IMG/VR virus record: IMGVR_UViG_3300017753_003745
Span: 1 to 5,791 of that record
Direction: 5' to 3' (one strand)
DNA length: 5,791 nucleotides
From: a virus
Numbering within the stretch: position 1 is the stretch's first letter; each line of letters starts with the position of its first letter. The notes beneath the pieces are model-generated. The model saw only the letters and a list, made by a program, of their open reading frames with translations. It had not been told where the DNA came from and ran no database searches. Positions 1 to 5,791 of the stretch are shown here, one piece after another. The position numbers and the translations under genes are program-made.

Positions 1-51
1 ACGCCAAAGCTAAGGCCTGATATTATTTCTTTAATCCACATTCTTTCGCTC
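1..51. repeat. Terminal direct repeat, copy 1 (circularisation overlap)
   Basis: acgccaaagctaaggcctgatattatttctttaatccacattctttcgctc is identical to 5741-5791. It runs through coding sequence (end of the 67-aa ORF, start of the 29-aa ORF), so it is an assembly/linearisation overlap rather than a biological repeat. Confidence 0.95.
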
Positions 52-234
52 CCAATATGAAAATATTAGGTCGGCTGCGACTGCGGCTGCAGCTATTGCA
101 CCTGTTTCAATTGCAAGTGCTGCTTCTTGCGCTACTCCCATCGTAATTAATCCGCCTGCGATCATTGATCCCACGCGCCTTAACGTTGGCTTTAGTAGCT
201 CTTTTAAAATAAATTTGTGCACATCAACTCCCAT
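31..234 (-). CDS. Small Gly/Ala-rich membrane protein (67 aa) with two predicted hydrophobic helices and a charged C-terminal tail; candidate holin/pinholin-like or pilot-associated membrane protein
   Basis: ORF track. Hydrophobic segments are VGSMIAGGLITMGVAQEAALAI and TGAIAAAAVAADLIFSYW, followed by the charged tail ERKNVD. The ATG at 234 has no clear SD. An in-frame GTG at 220-222 has GGAG (228-231) 5 nt upstream and lies 1 nt after the TGA of the upstream 73-aa ORF, so the true start may be 222. The stop overlaps the start of the downstream micro-ORF by 11 nt. Confidence 0.55.
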   Translation of the reverse strand: MGVDVHKFILKELLKPTLRRVGSMIAGGLITMGVAQEAALAIETGAIAAAAVAADLIFSYWERKNVD

Positions 235-445
235 GTTCTACACAGGACTTGTTTTGTTCTCTTAGATTCGCATAATATATATTATGAATCCGGACAAACC
301 TGTGGATGTTCTCTGTATATCTCTGATTCGTAAACATTGTCAAATTATTTTTTTGTTGCTTCAAATTTGCTTGGATTCGTTTCACTGCCATCCAGGCTAA
401 ATTTGAGTTTCCCATTGCGACCAGGGCGCATGCCTTGGTCTTCAT
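224..445 (-). CDS. Hypothetical 73-aa ORF; doubtful, may be a non-coding control region
   Basis: ORF track only. There is no SD before the ATG at 445 and no recognisable motif. It overlaps the 150-aa ORF by 101 nt and contains a promoter-like element and a 16-bp palindrome. In its favour, it is an open frame in an AT-rich stretch and its stop (224-226) abuts the possible GTG start of the next ORF. Confidence 0.25.
   Translation of the reverse strand: MKTKACALVAMGNSNLAWMAVKRIQANLKQQKNNLTMFTNQRYTENIHRFVRIHNIYYANLREQNKSCVEHGS
271..286. repeat. Perfect 16-bp AT-rich palindrome cataatatatattatg
   Basis: The sequence equals its own reverse complement (checked by hand). It lies in the least convincingly coding part of the genome and contains a CATAAT -10-like hexamer on both strands. 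Confidence 0.8.
314..343 (-). promoter_or_regulatory. Candidate sigma70-type promoter on the coding strand: TTGACA - 18 nt - TATACA
   Basis: The minus strand reads AAAAAAATAATTTGACAATGTTTACGAATCAGAGATATACAGAG. It has a perfect -35 TTGACA (338-343), an 18-nt spacer and a -10 TATACA (314-319, 4/6 match). An A-tract lies upstream. The element starts 1 nt after the TAA (345-347) of the 150-aa ORF. It could drive the small membrane ORFs, VP2 and VP1, ending at the hairpin terminator at 2971-3007. Confidence 0.35.
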
Positions 446-797
446 TACTGTTGTTATTTACACCACGGTATATATTTTTTCCTCCACTTCCGCCTCGTGC
501 CTCGTTACGGGTTGGTCTATCCTTACACCGACGCCGCAGATTTGTTTTATCTGACCTATTCTTTTCTGATAGGGGCGTTGTTATTATAGGTGCAATAATT
601 GATTGCAACCTACTTTGTATTTTTCGTACCTCAGGTGTTGCGGCGGTTCCAACCACTCCAGTCCTTCCAATACTTATAATTGGCGGACTTACGTATTTTC
701 TATTTGTTCCCGTAGCACTTCGTCGTATTTGCGTCGCGTAATTACTTTTCCGAACTGCTTTATTTGTTTTACGTGATGTTTTTCTACTTTTTGCCAT
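345..797 (-). CDS. Highly basic low-complexity protein (150 aa), overprinted on the 3' end of rep; candidate DNA-binding/packaging protein (functional analogue of phiX174 J or gokushovirus VP8, but much larger)
   Basis: ATG at 795-797 with GGAG (806-809) 8 nt upstream. The N-terminus is MAKSRKTSRKTNKAVRKSNYATQIRRSATGTNRK. By hand count there are about 35 Lys/Arg versus about 10 Asp/Glu. It is on the same strand as all other genes. The first 109 nt overlap rep in a different frame. Confidence 0.5.
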   Translation of the reverse strand: MAKSRKTSRKTNKAVRKSNYATQIRRSATGTNRKYVSPPIISIGRTGVVGTAATPEVRKIQSRLQSIIAPIITTPLSEKNRSDKTNLRRRCKDRPTRNEARGGSGGKNIYRGVNNNSNEDQGMRPGRNGKLKFSLDGSETNPSKFEATKK

Positions 798-1723
798 TCG
801 CCTTGCTCCGTATATACTTCCGCTACGTCTTTATGTTCCCATAGAATACCAGGGATACCTTTATATTCTACTTCCGTTACATCTGCCTTTGTCCAATGGT
901 CAGGTTCTACTTCTTTATCCTGCCATTTTTCGCCATATTTAACGGGCTTGTAATGTAAACGTGTCGTTTCCATTTCGACGTCGAATTCTTCGCGTCTTGT
1001 TTCATTCTCGAAATATTCTTCAAATAATTCGTTCATTGGCTCTTTTCCGTACTTTTTGTACCATCGCCATCTTATTCTTCGCATAAACATATCTTTTGTT
1101 TTGCCCTGCATACAAAAATCTTTTATTTTGTTTCTGCTATTTCGCACGTCTCTAAATTTATAAAATATATTGCGTGGCAATATCATTTCTTTTACGTGCT
1201 GTTTTGCGAGCTCTTTAAAGTATTCTTCGCCTAAAGGCGGTTTCTTGGACATAGCCAAGTGACCAACTTTAACTCGTTCGTCTTGGTCTTTCAGAACATA
1301 TTTTAATACGTACTGAAACCCTTTCCAATCTGGTTCTTGAAAATAACTAAATCCTTTAGTCCAATATTTCCAATTCACACGTTTATTGTTTTCCACTTCT
1401 GGATATTGCTTGTCAAAAAACAAGATAATATGCCAGTGCGCTCTATTTTTTTTCGTACCGTATTCTCCGGCTACTATATACCGTACTGAATATTTTTTTC
1501 TTAATCTTTTCAAAAAATCTTGTACGTCTTTGTAAACTAGCGTTGCTGCGTTTACCCCAGCTTCCCCACCGTATGTTAGTGTTGCTGCGTAAGTTCGCTT
1601 TGCAAACTTACTTTCGGCAATGCATCGACCAACGAGATCGTCAACTCTTCGTTTTCGGCATTGCCAACATTTGCGACAGCTTACTTCAACCCCATTATTC
1701 AACATCGTTGGTGTTATACACAT
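689..1723 (-). CDS. VP4: Replication initiation protein, HUH rolling-circle endonuclease (Microviridae VP4 / phiX174 gpA-like)
   Basis: Motifs read from the translation are: N-terminal MCITP...SCRKCWQCR Cys cluster, motif-1-like ATLTY, HUH motif AHWHIILF (H96/H98, about nt 1430-1438), and the double-tyrosine motif YVLKYVLKD (Y138/Y142, about nt 1298-1312). The two Tyr have the same Y-x-x-K-Y spacing as phiX174 gpA. The SD is weak, which is plausible for a low-expression Rep. Confidence 0.9.
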   Translation of the reverse strand: MCITPTMLNNGVEVSCRKCWQCRKRRVDDLVGRCIAESKFAKRTYAATLTYGGEAGVNAATLVYKDVQDFLKRLRKKYSVRYIVAGEYGTKKNRAHWHIILFFDKQYPEVENNKRVNWKYWTKGFSYFQEPDWKGFQYVLKYVLKDQDERVKVGHLAMSKKPPLGEEYFKELAKQHVKEMILPRNIFYKFRDVRNSRNKIKDFCMQGKTKDMFMRRIRWRWYKKYGKEPMNELFEEYFENETRREEFDVEMETTRLHYKPVKYGEKWQDKEVEPDHWTKADVTEVEYKGIPGILWEHKDVAEVYTEQGEWQKVEKHHVKQIKQFGKVITRRKYDEVLREQIENT

Positions 1724-1816: not shown

Positions 1817-2452
1817 CTATCGTGATCGATTAGCTTCATAAACATTCTCCAAGAAAGCAAAACGAAGTCTTGTTTCTTCCGGAATCTTTATACTGTTTCC
1901 CACACAATGGTTGTAAGCTTGTCTGTATTTCTTCCAATCTTTTATCTCCCAATGTGCAGGATCCCAAAATTCCCATTCGCCGCCCCATTCAAGTTTGATG
2001 TTACGCTTCCTGGCAATTTCTTTTCCAATGGCACCTATCACGTCCCATTGTTTTTTGCTCAAATCCCACGCCTTAGTCGCGCTGATAATATCAACGGCTA
2101 AACCATACTGGTGTGGGCTTTGGCCTGCTCTTGCATTAGACCTACCTTGCGCGTGCAATTCATCTTGCCGCTCACGCGTTCTCAAAAATTCAAACGCTTT
2201 AATTGGTATACGCCTTGCTTTGCACTCTTTGTGCATCGCTTTCCAAAATTCGACTATTTGCGGGTGAACCCACATATATTCGTTTTCACTTTGGTCTATA
2301 ACAACATGAATGTTCTTATGAGCGTTTTCGTCTATTAGGTCTAAAGCAGCATCCGTATGCTTTTTATGCGCCAGTCCTTTTAAATATTGGATACGGTCTA
2401 AAAACCGTATCCACTTTAAAAAACTAAGTAGCGGCTTCACCTTCTGTAACAT
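1817..2452 (-). CDS. Zinc peptidase, M15 family (VanY / T5 endolysin-like D-Ala-D-Ala or L-Ala-D-Glu peptidase); putative endolysin
   Basis: LAS/M15 signature motifs are present: RTRERQDELHAQGRS, SPHQYGLAVD (H114-x6-D121, about nt 2090-2113) and EWGGEWEFWDPAHWE (D164/H167, about nt 1952-1963). The ATG at 2450-2452 has GGAGGA (2464-2469) 11 nt upstream and overlaps the preceding ORF by 29 nt. An alternative start at M60 (ATG 2273-2275) would give a 152-aa single-domain enzyme. Confidence 0.85.
   Translation of the reverse strand: MLQKVKPLLSFLKWIRFLDRIQYLKGLAHKKHTDAALDLIDENAHKNIHVVIDQSENEYMWVHPQIVEFWKAMHKECKARRIPIKAFEFLRTRERQDELHAQGRSNARAGQSPHQYGLAVDIISATKAWDLSKKQWDVIGAIGKEIARKRNIKLEWGGEWEFWDPAHWEIKDWKKYRQAYNHCVGNSIKIPEETRLRFAFLENVYEANRSR
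2388..2413. other. 10-bp perfect hairpin tggatacggt / accgtatcca (6-nt loop) just downstream of the 176-aa ORF stop and inside the 5' extension of the peptidase ORF
   Basis: Arms are 2388-2397 and 2404-2413, checked by hand. On the coding strand the hairpin is followed by ATATTTAAAA. It could be an attenuator or weak terminator, or a translational control element for the peptidase. Confidence 0.65.
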
Positions 2453-2970: not shown

Positions 2971-3007
2971 TTTTAATAAAATGGCGGGGGAGGGAGGTTC
3001 CCCCGCC
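2971..3007 (-). terminator. Rho-independent terminator-like hairpin after the major capsid gene
   Basis: The coding strand reads GGCGGGGG-AACCTCCCT-CCCCCGCC followed by ATTTTATTAAAATT. It has an 8-bp all-G/C-rich stem (2983-2990 / 3000-3007), a 9-nt loop and a T-rich tail. It starts 10 nt after the VP1 stop. Confidence 0.7.
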
Positions 3008-3017
3008 GTTGCACTAC

Positions 3018-4700
3018 TTAGCTTTTTGTAATACGCGCTGCGTCAACTAAGTTAGTGATTGAGTCGTAGTCTGATGTCGCGTCTGCTTCTATTAAGCGAT
3101 CCCCAAACACTACGTTTGTATCGACAGTTAAATCGCTTACAGCTGTAATCTCAAAACTATCGCTTACTTGATCTGCAAAAATCTTTTTATGTAGATTTGT
3201 GCACAAGTAAAAATCGGTCGACAAACTTGGATCTGTTGTTTCATTTGTCCAAATTCTTGACCGAACCTCTGTGTATGCATCGTTAGCCGGTCTATAAAAT
3301 TTACCGCCTACATTAATCTGATCTCGATTGTATTCGTGATTTAATGGTGCATATCCTAAAGTTGCGTCTGGAGCACTATGATTAACGTCCAGGTGGTTTT
3401 TCTTAACCACTGCAACTTTTTCTGGGTCCAAACTGTCCCGTAGGGCATTTGGCAAATTATCAGTATCTGTTGTATACAAGAAATAATCTTTCTTGCGTTC
3501 CCAAACCCTCTCTGGTGCGATTTCTAAACATGTCATCACTATGCCGCCAATACTTGTCCTGGGCGCTCGCACTCTGTAACCCAATGATACAAATCCATTT
3601 GTTGCTGTATCATCTAAATTTCCACTATCGGTTGCAAACCGTTGTGAAAATCCAAACATTCCAGTTTGTGATCCAATCAACATAGGTTGTTTCATTACTT
3701 CTGTTGGTACTGTTATACCTTGCATTAACAAATCAATTATATATTCGTCGTCTATACCATCATAAGCAGCTCTTATTTTTGCAAACGCTGCCGTTTTTCT
3801 GGCTTGCTCGATGTCTGCTAAAGACATTTTAGCTCCGCCACCTTCTGTTATTTCTGCCCATAAACGGTCAAAAACCCATCCACCAGTCGATCCGTCTGGC
3901 GCAACTTGGGTAGAACTTAATTGAAATTTGTTTACATCACTTTCTGCAGGTGAATACATAGTTGACGCACCAGTTGTACTTTCGTCACCAGCTAGAAATG
4001 TTGTCCCAACACTCATAGCAGTTGACCTTAACGGTGCTTTAAATGTCAACGCGTTTAACGCTACTTCACCATCTATTAGCTTTTGATCAAAATCAGCCAT
4101 AATATGACTGTTTCCTTCGTTTGGCCAAAATGCTTCCGCAAGATCATGTTCAAATTCGTTACGCACAGCTAAACTTGTAGATCTTGCTTTTCTTCTATGG
4201 TTCACAATTGCGTTATATGCTTGCACGTAACTATTGTTCATGTCTGCTACACCATGATGTAGCCCCATAGTTCCATAAAATGTCGCTCTGCCATTATCGC
4301 CAGAATCCATATCTGTTGGAGTACTGTCTGTAACAACCGCTGAACCGTTATAATATTTATTCTTTTCAAAAAAACTTACCGGTGACCCCGCTATTCCGTT
4401 TTCTTTGCTATAACTTCTATTTAATTCATCTATTGACCCGTTAAACTGGTCAAATGCTAAATAGGGTACAAAATATGTGCATGCTTTCGCCACAATAGCG
4501 TTCACTGGCTTTTCTGATGTTTCCATCATTTCCACTGATACATTTACATTTCCGCTGAAACCTTCTTCGCGTAATATTGGATCTGCTTTAATCGGTAATA
4601 TCTTACCCGCATCCCCTGACGTTAATACACGTCCTTTGCTCATACGTCTTGTGCGCTGAAAGCTCACTGGGACGTTAGGTATCATTTCTGTATTTCTCAT
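3018..4700 (-). CDS. VP1: Major capsid protein (Microviridae VP1 / phiX174 F-like)
   Basis: This is the largest ORF (560 aa), the usual size for VP1. The N-terminal pattern (VSFQRTRRMSKGR...GKILPIKADPILREEGF...TYFVPYLAF) resembles the conserved start of F/VP1 jelly-roll proteins as I recall them. A purine-rich SD AGGAGAAG (4707-4714) lies upstream and a terminator downstream. The pilot and Rep gene context also fits. Confidence 0.85.
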   Translation of the reverse strand: MRNTEMIPNVPVSFQRTRRMSKGRVLTSGDAGKILPIKADPILREEGFSGNVNVSVEMMETSEKPVNAIVAKACTYFVPYLAFDQFNGSIDELNRSYSKENGIAGSPVSFFEKNKYYNGSAVVTDSTPTDMDSGDNGRATFYGTMGLHHGVADMNNSYVQAYNAIVNHRRKARSTSLAVRNEFEHDLAEAFWPNEGNSHIMADFDQKLIDGEVALNALTFKAPLRSTAMSVGTTFLAGDESTTGASTMYSPAESDVNKFQLSSTQVAPDGSTGGWVFDRLWAEITEGGGAKMSLADIEQARKTAAFAKIRAAYDGIDDEYIIDLLMQGITVPTEVMKQPMLIGSQTGMFGFSQRFATDSGNLDDTATNGFVSLGYRVRAPRTSIGGIVMTCLEIAPERVWERKKDYFLYTTDTDNLPNALRDSLDPEKVAVVKKNHLDVNHSAPDATLGYAPLNHEYNRDQINVGGKFYRPANDAYTEVRSRIWTNETTDPSLSTDFYLCTNLHKKIFADQVSDSFEITAVSDLTVDTNVVFGDRLIEADATSDYDSITNLVDAARITKS

Positions 4701-4764
4701 TTTTTTCTTCTCCTGTTAATAATTCGTTTAATTATTTTTCTTATTTTTTTACACTTTGTGCAGC

Positions 4765-5691
4765 TCAATACGCACCGCGCATTTCACCCCTTTTCTGAGG
4801 TCCTTTCAAAGTTGTTACTGTTACTGGTGGTAAAAATTGTTTAGTTTTTCTTCTTCTGTTTCTAGAAAAATTTGCTGTACTTTCGTTGCTCATCAAAACC
4901 ATCGCTGTTTTTCTAGCGTCTGCTATTGCAACTCCCAGTCCAACCAACGAGCCAACAATATCTCCATATCGTTCCTCGTAATCTTCAACATTTGAAAAAT
5001 TTTCATCAATTTCCACGTCAGCACCGGCAAATTTTAAATCCAACGCTTCGTCGTCATAATTTCCGCGTGCTATTTCACTATTTATACTTTTTACCTGGGC
5101 TAATATTAAACTTTTATTTAACTCATCCATTCTACTTTCGTGAGAATAATTTTGTTGTCTTGTAAATTCCGCTAAACCTACATTTACGCCTGTTTCCAAT
5201 CCCGCTGCGATTGGATTTCTTGACAGGGTAGGGGTTGCATAAACCCCGTCCATCATAACACTTTGTGCCATTGTTCCTGCTACGGCTGTGCCGTATGCGC
5301 TACCGCCGCCGGCCCTTAACGCTGTTAAAGGGTTAATCCCTGCCTTTTGTGCGTCTTTTACCAAATTATCATAATAATTTTCACGCACTCCTGTATTGTA
5401 TTCTCTGCTTTCAACAACTTCTTTTTTATTACGTTCGTATACTCTTTCGCTTTCCGCTTTGTTTGCAGCCAACACCCTTGTGTTTTCTTTTTTAGCATCA
5501 TTTCTTGTTAAAATTGCGCCTGCCGTACTTGCTGCACTTGATGCCAAGGCCACTTTTGTGCCTGCACTTAATTTTCCTATTACACCCGCAGCTGCGGGAC
5601 CCATTGTTGCTATTGCTGCACCCCCTATAATTGCTTCTACAGGGTTTTTTATTATAGGACGTAATATTTTACGTTCGATCCATTTGAACAT
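4765..5691 (-). CDS. VP2: Minor capsid / DNA pilot protein (VP2 / phiX174 H-like)
   Basis: 308 aa. It has a Gly/Ala-rich hydrophobic N-terminus (AIIGGAAIATMGPAAAGVIGKLSAG), a central AGINPLTAL motif typical of microvirus VP2/H proteins as I recall them, a helical middle and a basic C-terminus. GGAG (5698-5701) lies 6 nt upstream of the ATG. The start abuts the stop of the micro-ORF (TAAATG). Confidence 0.75.
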   Translation of the reverse strand: MFKWIERKILRPIIKNPVEAIIGGAAIATMGPAAAGVIGKLSAGTKVALASSAASTAGAILTRNDAKKENTRVLAANKAESERVYERNKKEVVESREYNTGVRENYYDNLVKDAQKAGINPLTALRAGGGSAYGTAVAGTMAQSVMMDGVYATPTLSRNPIAAGLETGVNVGLAEFTRQQNYSHESRMDELNKSLILAQVKSINSEIARGNYDDEALDLKFAGADVEIDENFSNVEDYEERYGDIVGSLVGLGVAIADARKTAMVLMSNESTANFSRNRRRKTKQFLPPVTVTTLKGPQKRGEMRGAY

Positions 5692-5781
5692 TTATATCTC
5701 CATAATTATCGGTAATACGAACAAAATAAATCCGCCTATTACGCCAAAGCTAAGGCCTGATATTATTTCTTTAATCCACAT
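5692..5781 (-). CDS. 29-aa single-pass hydrophobic micro-ORF MWIKEIISGLSFGVIGGFILFVLPIIMEI (not in the ORF track)
   Basis: Hand translation of the minus strand gives ATG at 5779-5781 (= 39-41) and TAA at 5692-5694, directly followed by the VP2 ATG. A strong SD GGGAG lies 7 nt upstream (seen at 49-53; truncated at the window end in the second copy). The start overlaps the 67-aa ORF stop by 11 nt. There is one clear TM-length hydrophobic stretch. Confidence 0.45.
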   Translation of the reverse strand: MWIKEIISGLSFGVIGGFILFVLPIIMEI

Positions 5782-5791
5782 TCTTTCGCTC
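5741..5791. repeat. Terminal direct repeat, copy 2 (circularisation overlap)
   Basis: Base-for-base identical to 1-51 when read by eye. Confidence 0.95.

Follow-up and report, generated by a model that had tools for sequence, protein, structure and literature searches.

An open reading frame (ORF) of only 29 codons that lies squeezed between two larger genes raises the question of whether it is a gene at all and, if so, what its product could contribute to the phage that carries it. The case considered here comes from the viral record IMGVR_UViG_3300017753_003745, whose first 5,791 nucleotides (nt), hereafter called the window, represent the circular genome of a microvirus of 5,740 nt with a terminal redundancy of 51 nt (bases 1-51 being identical to 5741-5791). 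The micro-ORF is located between the gene for a hydrophobic protein of 67 amino acids (aa), designated o67, and the gene for the DNA pilot protein VP2. Comparison with related genomes suggests that it is almost certainly a real protein-coding gene and that its product, a single-pass membrane peptide, probably belongs to a module with the holin-like o67. Since the peptide travels with this probable holin, its most likely role is to help time the bursting of the host cell.

The micro-ORF is located on the minus strand (5781..5692) and comprises 29 codons and a TAA stop codon; its translation agrees with that given in an earlier, sequence-only reading of the window. The translation signals described there were also recovered. 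A Shine-Dalgarno motif, GGGAG, is found at positions 53..49 in the left copy of the redundant sequence, within the last codons of o67, and is separated by a 7-nt spacer from the ATG start codon at 41..39, which is equivalent to 5781..5779. The upstream gene o67 (234..31) terminates inside the start of the micro-ORF, giving rise to an overlap of 11 nt, and the TAA codon (5694..5692) is immediately followed by the ATG of VP2 at 5691, whose ribosome site (GGAG, 5698..5701, minus strand) lies within the last codons of the micro-ORF, in an arrangement that is the same in all clades. The proposal that the micro-ORF is a translationally coupled cistron is thus supported by its own ribosome site, its overlapping start and a stop codon abutting the VP2 start. 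As also claimed, the ORF spans the linearization point of the non-redundant 5,740-nt circle, and contigs from public sequencing runs cross from position 5740 to 1. The right end of the window (5791) cuts the Shine-Dalgarno motif, and the first 41 nt of the micro-ORF are repeated at window positions 1-41; owing to the 51-nt redundancy, the ORF itself is intact at the right end. Read-through into VP2, which would generate a fusion protein, was considered and rejected, as the in-frame TAA-ATG arrangement is limited to the clade of the window, with overlapping or offset junctions in the other clades.

Because the window contains 84 ORFs of at least 20 aa, an ORF of 29 codons alone is not beyond chance, and its status as a gene therefore had to be decided by comparison with relatives. 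The closest of these in GenBank are the Roseobacter phages CRPss-151 to CRPss-155 (about 67% nucleotide identity), which have been placed in the proposed subfamily Occultatumvirinae (PMC11499846). Our set comprised 80 IMG/VR loci retrieved with the VP1 capsid protein of the window (55-89% identity), 23 further loci obtained with a VP1 alignment and 19 GenBank genomes. Using a profile built from seven variants, we found that about 60 marine Occultatumvirinae genomes or contigs have a homolog at this position, and o67, the peptide, VP2 and VP1 occur together in 62 genomes or contigs, including the window. The homologs comprise at least eight sequence types that are mutually only 20-40% identical, yet all of them are 27-32 aa long and contain one hydrophobic helix. 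The ORF of the window shows the same layout, with a length in this range, a position between o67 and VP2, a start overlapping the upstream stop and a stop abutting VP2; its product, itself a member of the seed, scores 51.4 bits against the seed profile (E 2.6e-14). A GGAG, GAGG or AGGA motif is found 5-11 nt before the start codon in 51 of the 54 distinct contexts.

The pattern of nucleotide change points in the same direction. Within the clade of the window, six distinct nucleotide versions differ almost only synonymously, with K-to-R, V-to-I and M-to-L as the sole replacements. Summed Nei-Gojobori ratios of nonsynonymous to synonymous change (pN/pS), determined after exclusion of the 12 nt overlapping o67, amounted to 0.035, 0.14, 0.15 and 0.15 for the sense frame in four clades, compared with 1.0-4.9 in the other two sense frames and 0.85-3.6 in the antisense frames a0 and a2. 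The sequence-only reading had proposed such a check of conservation and had named stops or frameshifts in relatives as an observation that would speak against a gene. In the relatives, the frame is open and change mostly synonymous, and no stop or frameshift is found in any recognizable copy, the gene being either intact or cleanly absent. The alternative is that the frame arose by chance and owes its conservation to a nucleic-acid signal or an antisense frame. ORFs of this length are indeed frequent in the window, and the wobble-sharing antisense frame a1 is open in 38 of 43 sequences, with its pN/pS lowered to 0.13-0.42. These values are, however, always above those of the sense frame, which are the lowest in all four clades, and stops interrupt this antisense frame in the remaining five sequences. 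Moreover, all recognizable genes of the window are encoded on the same strand as the micro-ORF, conservation extends to the start codon and the ribosome site, and the peptide motifs persist despite the loss of nucleotide identity. We regard the idea that the micro-ORF is not a gene as having next to no likelihood. Contigs from the RNA libraries of three seawater studies cover positions 5144-5749, crossing the circle junction; they are not counted as proof of transcription, because DNA carry-over is possible and they show neither strand nor level.

Beyond these genomes, 16 clusters were obtained at E ≤0.001 when 1.84 billion representative proteins were searched with the profile, nearly all of them stand-alone peptides of 27-43 aa, including one (P0025, E 2.7e-7) that is identical to the window peptide; none of the 16 contained a fusion of the peptide to VP2 or o67. 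The earlier assertion that the gene is hidden and will be missed by annotators therefore holds only in part. It is unannotated in most relatives, among them CRPss-151 and CRPss-155, which contain 31-aa ORFs in the same slot between the o67 homolog and VP2. However, it has been deposited as a 29-aa 'hypothetical protein' in another Roseobacter phage, CRPss-251 (gp03, XAO36538.1), with the same slot, size and single helix as in the window, and it has been called in metagenome protein sets. The peptides of these isolates match the family profile (E 3e-5 for CRPss-251 and 1e-17 to 1e-18 for CRPss-155 and CRPss-151) and share the glycine and FGP-type motifs of the family, although their identity to the window peptide is only about 25-40%; no function has been assigned to them. 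Neither the CRPss paper (PMC11499846) nor that on the Sulfitobacter phage ICBM5 mentions a holin or membrane protein. Judging from these comparisons, most deposited annotations of this group omit genes of about 30 codons that are under strong purifying selection.

What kind of protein does the micro-ORF encode? As predicted from the sequence of the window, the product is essentially one transmembrane helix, with an uncharged hydrophobic core of 22 residues. The N-terminus is short and contains Lys or Arg, so that the charges are located N-terminally. The uncharged core harbours a conserved small-xxx-small (GxxxG-type) motif, and residue G13 is invariant in alignments A2 and A4. Most clades show a late-helix (L/F)(F/Y)GP turn, which is replaced by VLP in the clade of the window; neither the largest clade (L057 type) nor L097 has the proline. 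The helix is followed by only two to four residues, the codons of which double as the VP2 ribosome site. In four relatives that make up one clade (L095:2086-2361, L063:4709-4984, L026:4732-4959 and L030:859-1086), the same helix is part of a longer protein of 75-91 aa, where it forms the C-terminal tail behind a soluble N-terminal domain that has no signal sequence and carries the conserved motif PSDFDxKFAE. The charge distribution and this natural fusion suggest that the N-terminus faces the cytoplasm, as in a tail anchor. The soluble domain did not match any family in domain scans, and the long fused form (alignment A6) was modelled by AlphaFold2 with a predicted local distance difference test score (pLDDT) of 60.7, too poor for a fold search. 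In L055, the soluble domain corresponds to a separate ORF (213-494), whose frame differs from that of the overlapping peptide gene.

The peptide itself did not match any family in Pfam (E up to 0.1), PHROGs or NCBIfam (E up to 1), and the same Pfam and NCBIfam searches returned no match to the 'smalltalk' family (PF20096/NF033879, DUF6486). A tblastn search against GenBank phages gave nothing usable, and feature searches in Atlas returned only similarities of 0.76-0.81. One weak match to the peptide profile (P0030, E 2.6e-4) is a 62-aa single-helix protein in a tailed-phage context, encoded beside a minor tail protein (L123:1252-1440; phrog_1924). It may reflect chance or a type of helix that also occurs outside microviruses.

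The compact arrangement of the locus could be taken to mean that the micro-ORF is only a coupling spacer, whose translation delivers ribosomes to VP2 while the peptide has no function of its own. The close spacing of stop and start signals at either end and the double use of the C-terminal codons would fit this idea. It is nevertheless very improbable, given the low pN/pS values (0.035-0.15) and the retention of the hydrophobic helix and of the glycine and proline positions across clades at 20-40% identity. Moreover, soil relatives couple o67 directly to VP2 without any spacer ORF.

Among the functions that the sequence-only reading had considered for a peptide of this size, that of a spanin-like accessory finds no support, as the peptide lacks Cys, a lipobox and a periplasm-spanning domain, its 29 aa being taken up by one helix with only the very short tail past it. 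The suggestion of an amurin fares similarly. In this scenario, the peptide would act like the lysis protein E of phiX174 and block a step of the cell wall precursor pathway (MraY, MurJ or MurA). Protein E is a microvirus lysis factor with a membrane helix that contains a functionally important proline, and the single helix of the peptide, in which most clades have a proline past the midpoint, bears a superficial likeness to what is generally known of the transmembrane domain of E. However, E comprises 91 aa, has a basic soluble domain, is overprinted on gene D and acts without a muralytic enzyme, whereas the peptide has 29 aa, lacks a soluble domain and is not overprinted, its overlap with the neighbouring gene being limited to 11 nt. 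The phage already has an M15 endolysin alongside a holin-like protein, and no genome was found that has the peptide but not M15. The proline is missing in the largest clade and L097, as mentioned above, and searches of Pfam, PHROG and NCBIfam revealed no similarity to phiX174 E or other lysis families. We thus consider an amurin function highly improbable.

A further question is to which of its neighbours the peptide belongs. Position alone says little in this respect, because all junctions in these genomes are tight. It could be argued that the peptide is an accessory of VP2, produced by coupling in stoichiometric amounts and either chaperoning the hydrophobic N-terminus of VP2 or acting as a minor component of the virion or the DNA delivery apparatus. 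The tight junction at the VP2 start, the location of the VP2 ribosome site inside the peptide codons in every clade and the fact that the whole block of o67, micro-ORF, VP2 and VP1 ends at a terminator would be consistent with such a role. The divergence patterns argue for a different partner. Within the clade of the window, the peptide is 90-100% and o67 94-100% identical, whereas the N-terminus of VP2 has been swapped for unrelated sequence (28% identity in L003 and 22% in L012), and whole VP2 is only 38-68% identical in most of these genomes. Across 61 non-redundant genomes, peptide divergence showed a Spearman correlation of 0.66 with that of o67, compared with 0.51 for VP1, 0.46 for VP2 and only 0.26 for the VP2 N-terminus. 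Since the divergence of the peptide correlates best with that of o67, while the VP2 N-terminus is replaced, the peptide and o67 are inherited as a single module, and the VP2 start marks a recombination boundary. In addition, soil and gut relatives with a homologous VP2 lack the peptide, and the search of 1.84 billion proteins revealed no fusion to VP2. The 45-aa 'membrane protein' Gp1 of the Rhodobacter phage Ebor, likened to the peptide by description only, was undetected in virions (PMC11980548). Together, these observations make a function as a VP2 accessory decidedly unlikely.

The junction between o67 and the micro-ORF also serves as an insertion slot, which is occupied by unrelated ORFs of 60-93 aa in several relatives (L052:524-718, L097:250-435 and L055:213-494). 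Domain scans did not reveal any family match for these inserted ORFs.

The reading of the peptide as part of a lysis module depends on the nature of o67 (31..234, minus strand), a two-helix membrane protein and holin-like candidate. AlphaFold2 predicts a helical hairpin (pLDDT 79) with glycine-rich helices, for which a fold search in Atlas returned no match. The only recurring Pfam match among its relatives is PF23987 (Phage_holin_10), which was obtained, below the gathering cut-off, for 7 of 13 different sequences and covers positions 6-50 of 52. Two relatives match the holin family phrog_565 (E 0.008), and an Atlas feature search with o67 returned a holin family as a lead (0.89). The gene o67 is much older than the peptide; in Rhizobium phages as well as Tortoise and Flyfo microviruses, its homolog immediately precedes VP2. 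The presumed lysis enzyme of the phage is an M15 metallopeptidase (1817..2452, minus strand), which matches Pfam Peptidase_M15_4 and endolysin families in PHROG. It has no hydrophobic N-terminal segment and therefore needs some route across the membrane. Among the 19 GenBank genomes, 13 encode both M15 and o67, four encode neither and none encodes o67 alone; the two genomes with M15 but no o67 both have another hydrophobic ORF before VP2. Every peptide-bearing relative that covers the endolysin region also has M15.

In the reading that we favour, tentatively and with somewhat less than even confidence, the peptide is a small membrane subunit or modulator of the holin-like o67, acting as a co-holin or antiholin, the latter being a role already considered in the sequence-only reading and plausible on the present evidence. 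The reality of the gene, the membrane character of its product, the coupling signals and the common inheritance with o67 are directly supported by the sequence comparisons, and it is from there that we infer the orientation of the peptide in the membrane, its contact with o67 and its effect on lysis. The micro-ORF has a ribosome site of its own, from which it is translated in coupling with the end of o67, and its last codons provide the ribosome site of VP2. The peptide would then insert into the inner membrane next to o67, where its small-xxx-small face could pack on the glycine-rich o67 helices, such that it becomes part of the o67 assembly or regulates it. In the manner of a co-holin or antiholin, it would set the timing of the membrane breach through which the signal-less M15 endolysin reaches the cell wall, and its dose would be fixed by translational coupling within the unit of o67, micro-ORF, VP2 and VP1. 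It is tempting to speculate that the peptide and o67 make up a two-component clock, of either the holin or the holin/antiholin type, by which the M15 endolysin is released, a possibility that we put forward with some reserve. The peptide does share a basic trait of holins, in that it is a small membrane protein of a phage and contains a transmembrane domain. A complex prediction for o67 and the peptide (alignments A5 and A4, from L027) gave no answer (score 0.00) and is evidence neither way.

Several observations weigh against a role as an o67 subunit. The module is located about 3 kb from the endolysin gene, with VP2, VP1 and a 176-aa gene in between, and the peptide abuts VP2 even where inserted ORFs separate it from o67 (L052, L055 and L097), as part of a micro-ORF/VP2 junction that is tight throughout. 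It also lacks the hydrophilic, charged C-terminal tail typical of holins, and the few C-terminal residues that it has may owe their identity to the VP2 ribosome site and not to peptide function. The PF23987 matches of the o67 relatives score only 12.5-20.2 bits, compared with a gathering cut-off of 27, and the o67 copy of the window does not match this family. The co-occurrence of o67 and M15 is only suggestive of a link to lysis, because the M15-negative genomes (CRPss-154 and three Ciona-associated ones) represent about two independent lineages; these are thinly sampled, as a search for related loci with the VP1 protein of CRPss-154 found nothing. Furthermore, Rhizobium phages, Tortoise microvirus 47 and 76 and the marine relative L086 all contain both M15 and o67 but lack the peptide, which is therefore dispensable for endolysin-based lysis and represents an add-on rather than a core component. 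Small ORFs after the endolysin gene in soil and gut relatives, checked as positional substitutes, mostly do not encode membrane proteins.

Clade-restricted and dispensable genes are often accessory genes for host interaction, and the peptide might thus be directed at the host instead. It could bind a host inner-membrane protein or the entry channel of an incoming pilot protein, thereby blocking secondary infection or retuning the host independently of lysis. Its size and architecture resemble those of bacterial single-helix modulators (with the Atlas look-alikes PmrR and YncL, at 0.76, serving as leads only), it adjoins the pilot gene, and the slot just upstream takes up variable accessory ORFs. 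However, the peptide has no homology to known exclusion or modulator families in Pfam, PHROG, NCBIfam or Atlas, it is inherited with o67 and does not vary with VP2, and it shows strong conservation among hosts and clades, in contrast to accessories for host interaction, which usually diversify. A host-directed function is therefore unlikely.

The o67 subunit reading can be compared with systems known from other phages. In F1-cluster mycobacteriophages, the holin-like proteins LysF1a and LysF1b, with two and one transmembrane domains, respectively, are jointly needed for efficient and correctly timed endolysin-dependent lysis (PMC13056207). This pair is similar to the proposed combination of o67 and the peptide, with the likeness limited to architecture. 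LysF1b is larger than the peptide and predicted to have an N-out/C-in topology, and the two genes are part of a classical cassette beside the lysins in a double-stranded DNA phage with a Gram-positive-type host, whereas the module described here belongs to a single-stranded DNA phage of 5.7 kb and is separated from the endolysin gene by about 3 kb. The Phage_holin_10 family (PF23987), represented by gp28 of Pam3, fits o67 in its size and two-helix hairpin; the micro-peptide does not match any holin family. Within the microviruses, Ebor, a member of the sister subfamily Tainavirinae, has a peptidoglycan hydrolase that was found to be experimentally active and encodes Gp1 upstream of the pilot gene (PMC11980548). 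Gp1 is longer than the peptide and is separated from VP2 by Gp2. Compared by description only, it may correspond to o67 rather than to the micro-peptide.

In some gut-associated relatives that lack the micro-peptide, namely Flyfo microvirus Tbat2_110 (L112:4390-4488) and L113 (4354-4464), the o67 homolog is preceded by an ORF of 32-36 aa with a single helix, which is unrelated to the micro-peptide and may represent an independent acquisition of a small membrane peptide. In Tortoise microvirus 76 (L084), a 71-aa o67 homolog (5072-5287) is unannotated. The deposited VP2-like coding sequence starts at 5148, in a frame overlapping this homolog, and an ATG at 5277 (5277-6188), which abuts the homolog, looks like the true start.

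The remainder of the window shows a compact gene order, with all recognizable genes on the minus strand. A replication initiator (1723..689) is followed by a basic 150-aa gene and a 73-aa ORF, both listed between this gene and o67. Downstream of o67 and the micro-ORF lie VP2 (4765..5691), identified by its matches to PHROG pilot proteins, and VP1 (4700..3018), and the 176-aa gene is listed between VP1 and M15. Directly after VP1, a GC-rich hairpin with a T-rich tail (2983..3007, minus strand) likely acts as a terminator and marks the end of the transcription unit of o67, micro-ORF, VP2 and VP1. In a promoter scan of the window, the number of sites was not above that in shuffled sequence, and none was found upstream of the o67/micro-ORF module. 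Contigs from public runs skip 106-124 nt relative to window positions 332-457. In related contigs, the central part of VP2 (4762-5144) and a segment of VP1 (3828-4062) are replaced by unlike sequence, and both appear to be hypervariable or recombining segments; in L003, VP2 is only 38% identical to that of the window, and VP1 about 90%. Residues 7-35 of o67 resemble residues 3-33 of the window VP2 (BLASTP, 35% identity over 31 aa, E 0.006 in a single comparison), which, together with the differing VP2 N-termini of L003 and L012, suggests a partial duplication or a mosaic 5' end of VP2 in the clade of the window.

Microviruses are the textbook users of single-gene lysis. We know of no description of how the endolysin passes the inner membrane in those environmental microviruses that carry one. 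The value of our findings in this regard is limited, since the function of the peptide is inferred and the gene has already been annotated as hypothetical in one isolate, CRPss-251. Nevertheless, the conserved pair of coupled mini membrane genes provides a testable candidate for the membrane passage of the endolysin in abundant marine Roseobacter phages. If the peptide and o67 indeed formed a two-component clock, a complete canonical holin-endolysin system would be contained in a 5.7-kb single-stranded DNA phage, and the peptide would be the smallest holin-system subunit so far described, with its dosage fixed by coupling to structural genes.

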